Assembly (NCBI GenBank): GCA_021794075.1
Contig: JAJYRM010000005.1
Location: forward strand, 6,620-70,619
Source of the DNA: Bacteroidota bacterium
GTDB lineage: Bacteria; Bacteroidota; Ignavibacteria; Kryptoniales; JAKASW01
Direction: 5' to 3'
Length of the DNA stretch: 64,000 nucleotides
In this document: piece by piece, positions 17,531 through 20,239 of the stretch
Layout: every line of letters starts with the position of its first letter
Numbering within the stretch: the first letter of the stretch is position 1
Translations under genes and position numbers: made by a program
Notes under the pieces: model-generated
Told to the model about the DNA's origin: nothing
Database searches by the model: none
What the model saw: the letters and a program-made list of their open reading frames with translations, nothing else

Positions 17531-20239
17531 TCAGCTCTCCCTGTCTTTATCTTTGTCTTTCTCATCGTCATCGCTCCCTTTGGGATTTTCTCCGTTCTCT
17601 ACAACGATGTCTCCTGCCTTTTCTTCTTCGCTTAGTATCCTGTCTAATTCCACCGGATGCTCTTCTTCCATCTCCTCTTCGGTGATCGTTCCGAACAGCC
17701 AGGAAAGGTTCATTGGATAGACATCAGGGTTAAAGATTGAGAAGTACATATGCCACACGAGAATCGCGAGGGTCGCTAGAATCGCTTCATAATAATGCAC
17801 GAGTGTCGCTACATCGATCCCGAGAAGAGTGAATCTCCCTACAGTGAAGGTATTGAACCAGAGAAGAAGTCCGGTAAGGACCATCACGGTTGTCCCCCAG
17901 ATGAGCGCCCAGTATTCCGCTTTCTCGATGTAGCTGAACCTATCGAATCGCGGTCGCTTATCGGAAATTCCGAGGTAATACTTCACCGCGTCCCTGACGT
18001 CGGCCGCGTCTTTCAAATTCGGGAGCATGTCTTTGATAAACTGCCTCCCGCGTTGAGTGAAGATTACATAGTACACGTGGTATAACGCCGTCACAATCAT
18101 GATGACTGCGCTGATGCGGTGGATCAGACCACGCAACTCAAACACTCTCTCGCCTCCGCCTCCGATTTCACGGATTAGTCTCACCCACCATGAATCCGGG
18201 AATTTCAACATAAACCCCGTGAAGACAAGAAGAGTGAAGCTCACGAGCAGCCCCCAATGCTGCAGACGTTCGGCCTTGGTCATCCTCACATAGAGTTTCT
18301 TTCCAACATGCTTAAGTTCGGCGGACGGATCTCTTCTGAGTTTCAGTTTCGCCTTCGACTTCTTCACGAAATCGAATACGTTGTGTATCAGCATCATACC
18401 GATAACGCCGAAGATGAGCACCGCGTAGATCTGTGAAATCCAGAAGAGCAGCGGCTGATTGGTCGGCGTGGGAGCGATGTGTACAGGGAACGAAGCAAAT
18501 TTAGCATCGGCTCCAGGATGACACTTACCACATGTCTTGGCAATATTCGCTTTGTTAATTGGAGAATTAGGATCGGACGAAGGTAGTATTTCATGAGCGC
18601 CGTGGCAGCTCGCGCAATTGGCAACGGTCGTCATTCCCCCCTGTTTCGCAAGTCCGTGATAGCTGTCGAGATAACTTCCCACTGCGTGAGCGGGAAGGCC
18701 GTATCTGCTGGTGAGCCTGACTGAACCGTGGCAATGCGAACATGTCTGGACGATGTTGTTCTTGGAAACCGTCGATTGAGGATTGTTCGGAGCAAGTATC
18801 TGATGGTCGCCGTGGCAACTGGTGCACACGGGAGCGCTGTTGTTGCCGTTTTCCATGGCCTTGCCGTGAATCCCGGCCATGTAACGCTTCTCGATCCCAG
18901 AGTGACACCCGCTTTGACCGCAAGTAGCAGGGATATTATTCCTGAATATTCTGGATTTCGGATTTCCCGCGGGAAGCATACTGTGGGCGCCGTGACAATC
19001 GCTGCACGTGGCAGCCTTTAGATTTCCCTTTTCGAGCGCGACGAGATGGACGCTATATTTAATGCTCTCAAGGAACGGACGCGACACACCCACCATCTTA
19101 AAGACAGTCTTGTTATCCAAATGGCAACGCAGACATGTCTTGGGCTCATTCTGCCTGCTCACCGGCGATTCGGGATTGCTGACGGAAACAACGTTGTGAT
19201 CGTTATGACAATCCGTGCAAACCGGAGCAACCGCGAGCCTTTCCTTGTAAGCTTTTCCATGGGAAGACTCCAGGTAGTCAGCCGCTTGCTTCTGGTGACA
19301 TTTGGCACAAGTCGATACAATATTCAACCTGTTGACTGGCGAAGCTGTGTCGCTGGCCGCAAGCATGGAGTGCGAACCATGACAGTCCACACAGGTCGCC
19401 CCCTTGCCGGTTTTCCTGAGCGACTCAACATGAATGCTGTGTTCGTAGGAGTCGACAAATGACGTCATAGGCTTGCCGTTGGCCGCCTTCATCCCCTGGA
19501 AGAGCTTCGGATTAGAGTGACACTTGTAGCAAGCTTCCGAAACATTCTTCTTGGATACATGGGGATCGTGAGCGCTATGGCATGAAACACAAGTCACCGT
19601 GCCTTCGTCAAAAGCCTTCTTATGCACGCTATGGTTAAGATCAGAGGCAACACCTTTGTGGCACTGCATGCAAAGCGAGTCGATCTTCACTCCCTGCAAC
19701 GAAGCGACAGTCTTCACGTCATGAGCCTTGCCATGGCACGTCACGCACGTGAACGGCTCCTTGCCGACGGTTGCCTTCGCATGCGCCGACTGGAGAAACA
19801 CCTTCTTTGAAGCGTGACACGATATACACTTTGCGTCTACTACGATTTTGCTGGCAGGCTTGATATCATGCGTGCCGTGACAGCTCCAGCATTTCACCGA
19901 AGAATGCGCCAAATGGTAATTCGCGCCCTTGGGCGCTAGAAGATTGACGCTGTGACACTGGTCGCAGTCAACGTTTGGAGAGGTCTGTTTGTGAGGCACA
20001 TCATCGGCGCTGAATCCTTGATGACAGTCCGTGCAAGCGACCCCCGCGTCTCCGTGTACCGAGGAACTGAAGATGGCAGGATTGACGTACAGACTGATTG
20101 TCTTCCCATCCTTCTGCATTGTCAAAGTGGAATCGGAGTGACACGCAAGGCAATCGTCGTTTGAGCTGGCAAAAATAGGTCGTGCGAAAAGCGAATTTAA
20201 AAGAATAATGGTAAGTAATGAGAGTAATCTAATTTTCAT
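17531..20239 (-). CDS. Multihaem c-type cytochrome (18 CXXCH + 1 CX4CH) fused to an FdnI/HydC-type cytochrome b membrane domain (CbcL-like quinol oxidoreductase candidate)
   Basis: Signal peptide [24 protein letters not shown]. I counted 19 haem motifs, including five tandem paired-CXXCH modules. The C-terminal ~300 aa has 5 hydrophobic helices with [33 protein letters not shown] and [8 protein letters not shown]..VWHMY, the His pattern of PF01292-type dihaem b. Confidence 0.85.
   Translation of the reverse strand: [902 protein letters not shown]

Follow-up and report, generated by a model that had tools for sequence, protein, structure and literature searches.

A window of 64,000 nucleotides (nt) from the assembly of a Kryptoniales member labelled Bacteroidota bacterium (GCA_021794075.1; contig JAJYRM010000005.1, positions 6,620 to 70,619) contains, on its minus strand, a compact operon whose second gene encodes a multihaem cytochrome c fused to a membrane cytochrome b (hereafter, the fusion; Table 1). 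The operon starts with a small DksA-like open reading frame (ORF), followed by the fusion gene, a second DksA-like ORF and the genes for a tetrahaem c554-like cytochrome, a 492-amino acid (aa) barrel protein, a 14-haem cytochrome and a 5-haem lipoprotein. Overlaps of 4 nt occur between genes of the operon, its c-haem motifs total 42, and no other multihaem ORF is present in the window. The fusion is very probably a CbcL-type enzyme that couples the quinone pool to cytochrome c.

Table 1. Features of the fusion gene and its neighborhood (positions refer to the window)
Feature	Position	Strand	Basis or remark
Whole fusion gene, 19-haem cytochrome c + dihaem cytochrome b, 902 aa	17531..20239	-	Stop codon included
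Sec-type signal peptide, aa 1-24	20168..20239	-	Hydrophobic N-terminus; cleavage site predicted from sequence
N-terminal nine-haem region, haems 1-9, aa 25-269, MtrA/DmsE-like	19433..20167	-	TIGR03508 (sub-cut-off), PDB 6r2q chain A
Five tandem paired-CXXCH units, haems 10-19, aa 270-590	18470..19432	-	Internal repeats and PF09699
CX4CH motif CGQSGCH, haem 15, aa 440-446	18902..18922	-	Motif scan
Anchor transmembrane helix, aa ~596-626, periplasm to cytoplasm, with H619, N620, D623	18362..18454	-	Hydropathy and AlphaFold2 model
FdnI/HydC-type four-helix dihaem cytochrome b domain, aa 652-837	17729..18286	-	PF01292, FdnI alignment, Foldseek
Acidic cytoplasmic tail, aa 838-902, partly disordered, without a sixth transmembrane helix	17534..17728	-	Model and homologue alignment
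Small DksA/TraR-like C4 zinc-finger ORF, 4-nt overlap with fusion start	20236..20598	-	DksA_like E 1.9e-9, below cut-off
Second small DksA/TraR-like zinc-finger ORF, directly downstream of fusion	17185..17571	-	Sub-threshold similarity, synteny
Periplasmic tetrahaem cytochrome, c554-like, 4 CXXCH	16537..17169	-	PF13435, 69 bits
Putative outer-membrane beta-barrel, 492 aa	15003..16481	-	AlphaFold2 model and Foldseek
14-haem cytochrome c with signal peptide, candidate barrel-inserted or periplasmic wire	13729..15006	-	Motifs
5-haem lipoprotein cytochrome, lipobox LASC, candidate cell-surface terminal cytochrome	13037..13765	-	TIGR01904/PF09698
Sensor kinase (HAMP-PAS-HisKA-HATPase) and sigma-54-dependent response regulator, divergent	21832..25010	+	Domain matches
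Sigma-54-like -24/-12 element cGGCACA-N4-TTGA, ~17-31 nt upstream of ATG 20544	20561..20575	-	Conserved in 8/10 syntenic loci
Conserved structured non-coding element, ~160 nt, between the 132-aa ORF and the first small operon ORF	20705-20865	-	

The fusion ORF is intact over exactly the interval given in Table 1, and its product contains 18 CXXCH motifs (at aa 30, 69, 92, 117, 138, 165, 190, 217, 237, 283, 311, 341, 369, 412, 472, 500, 542 and 570) and one CX4CH motif, CGQSGCH, at aa 440, which brings the number of haem motifs to 19, the same count that had been obtained in an earlier annotation of this DNA made by a model from the letters and ORF translations (hereafter, the sequence-only reading). 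All 38 Cys residues of the protein are located within these 19 motifs; the number of CXXCH motifs expected from the composition of the protein is 0.09, and the maximum among 2000 shuffled sequences was 2. The distances between consecutive haem motifs are 39, 23, 25, 21, 27, 25, 27, 20 and 46, followed by five pairs (28, 30, 28, 43, 28, 32, 28, 42, 28). Besides the 19 motif His, the c domain contains 25 His residues, which is enough for bis-His ligation of all 19 c haems.

The last ten motifs comprise five tandem units of ~60-70 aa each, with pairwise identity of 31-44% and 11 alignment columns that are identical in all five. Each unit consists of CxxCH-G-x-H, a second motif T-C-x2(4)-C-H and a closing S-x-H-G, and accordingly encompasses two haem motifs and two conserved distal His; H587 is accounted for as a distal ligand of unit 5. 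The unit consensus proposed in the sequence-only reading is borne out as to the five tandem copies but is strict in three of them only, with D-T in place of D/N-P in unit 1 and N-E in place of N-I in unit 2; the CX4CH motif was correctly placed as the second motif of unit 3. The profile of PF09699 (paired CXXCH) matches the fusion in 8 stretches with 69.7 bits (gathering score 20.6), and c7/c3 families also score above their Pfam gathering scores. Of the two families that the same annotation had named for checking, TIGR01905 falls short of its cut-off (11.5 vs 25.2 bits) and PF01292 exceeds it (see below). A sequence search of the PDB detected no solved structural relative of this ten-haem block. 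The nine-haem N-terminal region, in contrast, matches chain A of PDB entry 6r2q (E = 5.6e-8), which we take to be the Shewanella MtrCAB complex, so that this part of the protein appears to resemble MtrA of the Mtr conduit, a likeness that stops short of membership in a curated subfamily.

Hydropathy analysis and an AlphaFold2 model (mean predicted local distance difference test score, pLDDT, of 87.1; 106 aligned sequences) agree that the protein has a signal peptide and, in its membrane part, a long anchor helix (aa ~596-636) plus four more helices that carry the patterns RLQH661W, IH707R...YH721VYY and VH815YY...WH830MY. This is the His arrangement of FdnI/HydC-type cytochromes, in which TM1 and TM2 of the four-helix domain each contribute a single His and TM4 contributes two, and the axial H18, H57, H155 and H169 of Escherichia coli FdnI, for which a structure has been solved, align with H661, H707, H815 and H830 of the fusion. 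The profile of PF01292 scores 60.8 bits (gathering score 30.1), and a Foldseek search with the membrane part of the model retrieved FdnI (PDB 1kqf, chain C; TM-score 0.83, root-mean-square deviation 3.4 Å), followed by HyaC. The four axial His, on whose conservation the sequence-only reading had staked its assignment of an anchor helix and an FdnI/HydC-type domain, are invariant across 106 homologues of four haem-count classes, and the assignment is well supported by these results. Lys and Arg account for 10 of 28 and 10 of 42 residues in the predicted cytoplasmic loops, and the periplasmic loops are not enriched in these residues; the modeled topology of the b domain is that of FdnI, with both termini in the cytoplasm. 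It is the anchor helix that allows a periplasmic c domain to join a b module whose N-terminus is cytoplasmic.

The fusion thus shares with FdnI and HyaC/HydC the four-helix fold, the four axial His and the topology, and the motif R767-F-x-Y-x-E-K-x-E-Y occupies the position of the FdnI quinone site, with R767, Y770, E772 and K773 aligned to the N110-K114 region of FdnI. It differs in that the electron partner is a covalently attached haem c chain as opposed to a separate Fe-S subunit; by analogy with the known structure of formate dehydrogenase N (FDH-N), the anchor helix would play the role of the C-terminal helix of FdnH. Five transmembrane helices are present in all, and all 106 homologues lack a hydrophobic segment beyond aa 837. 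Additional conserved residues include H721 (on TM2, 14 residues past the ligand H707; window positions 18075-18077), N620 and D623 (where the anchor helix nears the cytoplasm), all three invariant in the 106 homologues, as well as H619 (window positions ~18371-18385 for the three anchor residues) and H861, each present in 105 of the 106. All these residues lie toward the cytoplasmic side, and H619, N620, D623 and H721 could make up a third haem site or belong to a quinol/proton site. Among PDB entries up to April 2026, Foldseek retrieved no solved structure of a b/c fusion.

The fusion of the c and b parts in a single ORF, as read from the sequence, is genuine and neither chimeric nor rare. 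An identical 902-aa product is encoded in seven independent full-length assemblies, on contigs of 5-517 kb from several sources, and more than 100 full-length homologues with 41-81% identity retain the same colinear c/b junction and invariant residues on both sides of it.

In the sequence-only reading, the fusion was likened to CbcL of Geobacter, which was credited with about nine c haems. CbcL does carry nine c haems, which are low-spin and bis-His ligated, with a potential of -194 mV; it reduces PpcA and is required for low-potential acceptors, below about -100 mV (PMC9129911). The sequence that we used for comparison is not CbcL of Geobacter sulfurreducens (GSU0274) itself but a nine-haem orthologue encoded on a 686-kb ENA/NCBI contig (L084, positions 2635-4810), which is split by frameshifts into five called ORFs; these frameshifts are probably long-read indel errors, and protein-level searches would miss such genes. 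The orthologue has nine CXXCH motifs at the spacing of GSU0274 and a sixth, C-terminal transmembrane helix. In a tblastn search, the fusion matched it with 27% identity over 411 aa and 35% over 137 aa (joint E = 2.4e-48), which is inside the 28.6-100% range reported for the CbcL/MtrH/MtoC family (Zhong & Shi 2018, PMC6295460). The match runs colinearly, starting at haem 12 and taking in the anchor helix as well as the entire b domain, with H619, H661, H707, H815 and H830 of the fusion each aligned to a His, so that the proposed likeness to CbcL holds at the level of the alignment.

CbcL and its Desulfuromonadales orthologues, like the fusion, possess a signal peptide and a multihaem bis-His c domain that ends in paired CXXCH motifs with 28/42-43/28 spacing, and CbcL shares with the fusion the single anchor helix with a conserved His and the FdnI/HydC-type b domain. 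Also common to the two are a P-N-x-K/R-D...E-R-x-x-Y-x-E-K loop and a V-H-x-x-E-A-x-L-A-T...H motif in TM4. The fusion differs from CbcL in having 19 haem sites instead of 9, an MtrA-like N-terminal extension and a location in an operon with its own outer-membrane module; moreover, CbcL is backed by genetic and biochemical evidence, whereas the fusion is known from sequence alone. The proposal that this protein roughly doubles the wire is valid as regards the haem count.

The novelty implied by the sequence-only reading did not survive comparison with the literature. Zhong & Shi (2018, PMC6295460) catalogued 138 CbcL/MtrH/MtoC homologues of 416-1034 aa with 3-23 CXXCH motifs from 15 phyla, and among the entries of their Table S2 are numerous 19-haem proteins, 906-952 aa in length, from Caldithrix, Ignavibacteria, Bacteroidetes, Elusimicrobia, Omnitrophica and other groups, as well as one protein with 23 haems (large members are, e.g., Caldithrix abyssi Cabys_319, OGV21847 and OGU58019 from Ignavibacteria, and PKP08298 from Bacteroidetes). 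The 19-23-haem homologues resemble the fusion in overall design, the 19 haems, similar length and the phyla in which they are found. Their 19-haem spacing (37, 23, 30, 28, 45, 28, 30, 23, 37, ...) is different and looks like the 11-haem type with an 8-haem duplication; furthermore, most members of the family are predicted to have six transmembrane helices and a few to have five, the only five-helix protein among the entries with 19-21 motifs being OQX95005.1 from KSB1 (PMC6295460). The combination of the spacing pattern of the fusion with five transmembrane helices does not occur in the 2018 table. Judged by these sequence features, the fusion is a member of an uncharacterised five-helix subfamily, with an MtrA-like nine-haem head and ten paired haems, that is not in the 2018 list. 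The idea of an enlarged CbcL was nevertheless already published in 2018, and the fusion is a well-described example rather than a new kind of system; enlarged proteins of this sort are widespread among uncultured bacteria. This protein type is not discussed in the Caldithrix genome paper or in a 2026 preprint on extracellular electron transfer in peat, and a literature search for CbcL-like proteins yielded nothing relevant.

A scan of one genome per species detected relatives of the fusion in at least 590 species. The best species-level relative is encoded in a metagenome-assembled genome (MAG) of a 'Bacteroidetes bacterium' (81% identity), followed by those from Kryptoniota, Ignavibacteria, Calditrichota, Acidobacteriota and Verrucomicrobiota. 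The module consisting of the anchor and the b domain, searched by itself, has matches in 2,255 representative clusters at E <= 1e-3 and in 492 at E <= 1e-30; across the representatives, it carries from 1 to 19 haems, 11 being the commonest number, and most of the haem-bearing ones end with the spacing ...30, 29, 42, 28 beside the membrane. The ten-haem paired block shows near-constant spacing in most of the sampled matches with 13, 17 and 19 motifs, and it is the N-terminal part that varies: haems 4-9 are missing in the 13-haem class and haems 4-5 in the 17-haem class. Matches with 18 motifs deviate from the paired-block spacing. We considered and rejected the possibility that these have lost haem 15 because most of them carry CX5CH at that site; the loop length of this haem motif depends on the clade and its place in the third paired unit is fixed, with CX4CH in the fusion and CX2CH or CX5CH elsewhere.

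The genes downstream of the fusion point to an outer-membrane module. The AlphaFold2 model of the 492-aa protein (pLDDT 78.9) contains ~22-24 antiparallel strands after a signal helix, and a Foldseek search with this model yielded FimD/PapC ushers, AlgE and Occ porins (E from 4e-11 to 1e-7); all homologues of this protein are annotated as 'hypothetical'. The CX4CH...CXXCH domain of the 5-haem lipoprotein scores 54.4 bits with TIGR01904 (cut-off 27). Synteny extends over the entire cluster in all close relatives whose flanking sequence is long enough (54-81% identity), and the four-gene outer module is found within 10 kb of the fusion gene in many relatives with identity as low as 41-47%. As in MtrCAB of Shewanella and the Pcc/Ext systems of Geobacter, genes for a large outer-membrane barrel protein, a long multihaem cytochrome, periplasmic or inserted, and a lipoprotein cytochrome occur together; the operon in the window differs from these conduits in the haem numbers, 14 and 5, and in encoding the predicted quinol oxidase as well. 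By its gene content, the operon is a candidate for a complete route from quinol to the cell surface, and the fusion is likely to feed an extracellular electron-transfer conduit.

Taken together, these observations are explained best, and with good probability, if the fusion is an inner-membrane enzyme of the CbcL/MtrH/MtoC type, a quinol:cytochrome c oxidoreductase that serves an outward electron route. The Sec signal peptide exports the 19-haem c domain, and the anchor helix returns the chain to the cytoplasm. Under this scenario, the two b haems would be ligated by H707 and H815 on the periplasmic side and by H661 and H830 on the cytoplasmic side, with menaquinol bound near the latter haem, amid H830, R767/Y770/E772/K773, H721 and H619/N620/D623. 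Electrons would cross the membrane via the two b haems to the membrane-proximal paired-CXXCH units, follow the haem chain to the MtrA-like N-terminal end and pass, directly or via the tetrahaem c554-like protein, to the barrel, the 14-haem cytochrome and the 5-haem lipoprotein. Known multihaem wires measure ~8 nm for 10 haems (MtrA) and ~12 nm for 12 (GSU1996), and by extrapolation from these, the 19-haem chain could reach ~15-19 nm if linear; the small tetrahaem protein may still be used as a periplasmic carrier. Oxidation of quinol on the cytoplasmic side would release protons into the cytoplasm while electrons leave outward, and would thereby dissipate the membrane potential, which would help to push electrons onto low-potential acceptors, as has been proposed for CbcL. 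Such dissipation is in line both with CbcL being involved when acceptors lie below about -100 mV and with the -194 mV potential of its haem domain (PMC9129911).

Several observations weigh against this interpretation or parts of it. The placement of the quinol site on the cytoplasmic side is inferred by analogy with FdnI, and the fusion scores under the cut-offs of the curated families of this type (57.3 vs 115.85 bits for TIGR01583, FdnI, and 35.1 vs 121.5 bits for TIGR02125). Similarly, the N-terminal region matches the MtrA/DmsE decahaem profile TIGR03508 with 100.9 bits, below the cut-off of 192.2. Compared with CbcL, the fusion has five transmembrane helices in place of six (the sixth helix is without a counterpart in the subfamily), and the invariant H721 is an extra residue with no aligned His in CbcL. 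The presence of a small tetrahaem cytochrome in the operon speaks against a 19-haem chain that spans the periplasm by itself. The 492-aa barrel, unlike the MtrB/OmbB-type porins, belongs to no known porin family by sequence, having no match in Pfam or NCBIfam and no sequence likeness to these porins. The best 80 of the at least 590 genomic relatives all come from MAGs. Finally, the sequence does not reveal which way electrons flow: CbcL/MtrH/MtoC homologues occur among Fe(III) reducers as well as Fe(II) oxidisers, and no feature was found that separates the oxidising from the reducing ones (PMC6295460).

This last point leads to the alternative that survives best, although it appears unlikely, namely that the same enzyme works in reverse, as a quinone reductase that takes electrons from outside (Fe(II), minerals, a cathode or a partner organism) via the outer-membrane module. 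Reverse flow has already been proposed for MtoC of Gallionella and Dechloromonas, and in FDH-N, to which the membrane part of the fusion is linked by the fold match described above, the FdnI-type module natively reduces quinone with electrons from the periplasmic side. On the other hand, the surface lipoprotein contains the Geobacter-type CX4CH...CXXCH domain that is typical of cytochromes of metal reducers, and the Kryptonia/Ignavibacteria-like lineage of Bacteroidota to which the window belongs is known as heterotrophic, not lithotrophic; no pointer to lithoautotrophy turned up in the window, which was only partly surveyed for it. Given the surface cytochrome domain and the heterotrophy of the lineage, we favor, with moderate confidence, a net outward flow, that is, reduction of minerals, humics or partners.

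It is improbable that the fusion is a quinol dehydrogenase or a periplasmic electron store (capacitor) for soluble periplasmic reductases, with no extracellular pathway involved. The 13-haem relatives in Acidobacteriaceae and Opitutaceae, which lack the four-gene outer module and any porin-cytochrome genes within 10 kb, are compatible with such a role, and the capacity of multihaem chains to buffer electrons has been discussed for CbcL and PpcA (PMC9129911). In the window, however, the fusion belongs to a tight operon with the barrel and the 14-haem and lipoprotein cytochromes, a linkage that persists at the lowest identity levels given above, and no periplasmic reductase gene is adjacent to it. 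There is very little chance that the fusion is a formate dehydrogenase gamma subunit, the name given by the Joint Genome Institute (JGI) to several homologues and in line with the TIGR01583 match; this assignment is effectively refuted by the sub-cut-off score and the missing FdnG and FdnH neighbors, there being no formate dehydrogenase or hydrogenase subunit genes nearby in the window, and where the Fe-S subunit would be, there is a 19-haem c domain. An assembly chimera or a frameshift joining separate c and b genes, the least probable explanation of all, is ruled out by the seven full-length assemblies and the conserved junction.

CbcL-type enzymes represent the least understood step of extracellular respiration, and the subfamily of the fusion leaves the current picture of how quinol-to-surface pathways are built unchanged. 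The value of the subfamily lies in its abundance, as reflected in the number of clusters with the anchor/b module, and in the graded wire lengths on one membrane module; in the clade of the window, it comes with a compact operon that apparently comprises the whole pathway from quinol to the surface together with a regulator. Thus, the subfamily is a reasonable target for heterologous expression and cryo-electron microscopy, and it could also serve as a marker of electroactive potential in Kryptonia/Ignavibacteria-like bacteria. Three by-products of the analysis are of most interest: the graded 1-19-haem series on a constant membrane module, the additional His residues conserved toward the cytoplasm, and a conserved RNA structure specific to the operon (see below). 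We also entertain, as a long shot, the possibility that the five-helix subfamily is a natural length series of 1-19 haems in which the MtrA-like end of the 19-haem protein inserts into the barrel of its operon, forming a single membrane-anchored wire from quinol to the surface without a diffusible carrier, and that H619 and H721 serve as ligands of a third b haem or create a quinol site of a non-FdnI type.

The regulator is the divergent pair of a sensor kinase and a sigma-54-dependent response regulator, which is syntenic with the operon in the closest clade. The sigma-54-like element upstream of the first small ORF adjoins the gene for this activator; its -12 part is TTGA instead of TTGC. 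A scan of the whole window with the sigma-54 consensus yielded 45 matches, with 45 expected by chance, so that the argument for this site is its conservation. The adjacent sigma-54 two-component system is the probable regulator of operon expression. The true start of the first small ORF is probably the ATG at position 20544, which would yield a protein of ~102 aa.

The two small DksA/TraR-like proteins that flank the fusion are paralogues with a CxxC-x17-CxxC pattern and sub-threshold similarity to DksA/TraR (E ~1e-9), and are syntenic throughout the close clade; proteins of this type are odd partners for a cytochrome operon. In three related loci (L005, L006 and L010), the match to the fusion spans ~3.3-3.8 kb and the downstream DksA-like ORF is located ~4 kb away, which suggests an inserted gene or a tandem paralogue.

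The structured non-coding element upstream of the operon is closed by a long stem (GGGCUGCUGA/UCGGCAGCCC) that shows compensatory changes in a Kryptoniota relative, contains an invariant internal CUCGCUCAGGGGAAGGCACUGCCA and an invariant CCUCCUCCU tract, and ends with a terminator hairpin, also with compensatory changes, and a U-run. It is conserved more strongly than the flanking genes, has a minimum free energy z-score of -4.3 and shows covariation in 6 of the 36 predicted pairs. An Rfam scan of the upstream region including this element gave no match at E <= 1. The core of the element recurs at this same position in 10 syntenic loci from genomes and in every one of the 8 metagenome matches, which makes the element a candidate operon-specific small RNA or attenuator. 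Directly upstream of this element, a 132-aa ORF (window positions 20953-21351, minus strand), which has no family match, is syntenic as well and loosely resembles a receiver domain by eye.

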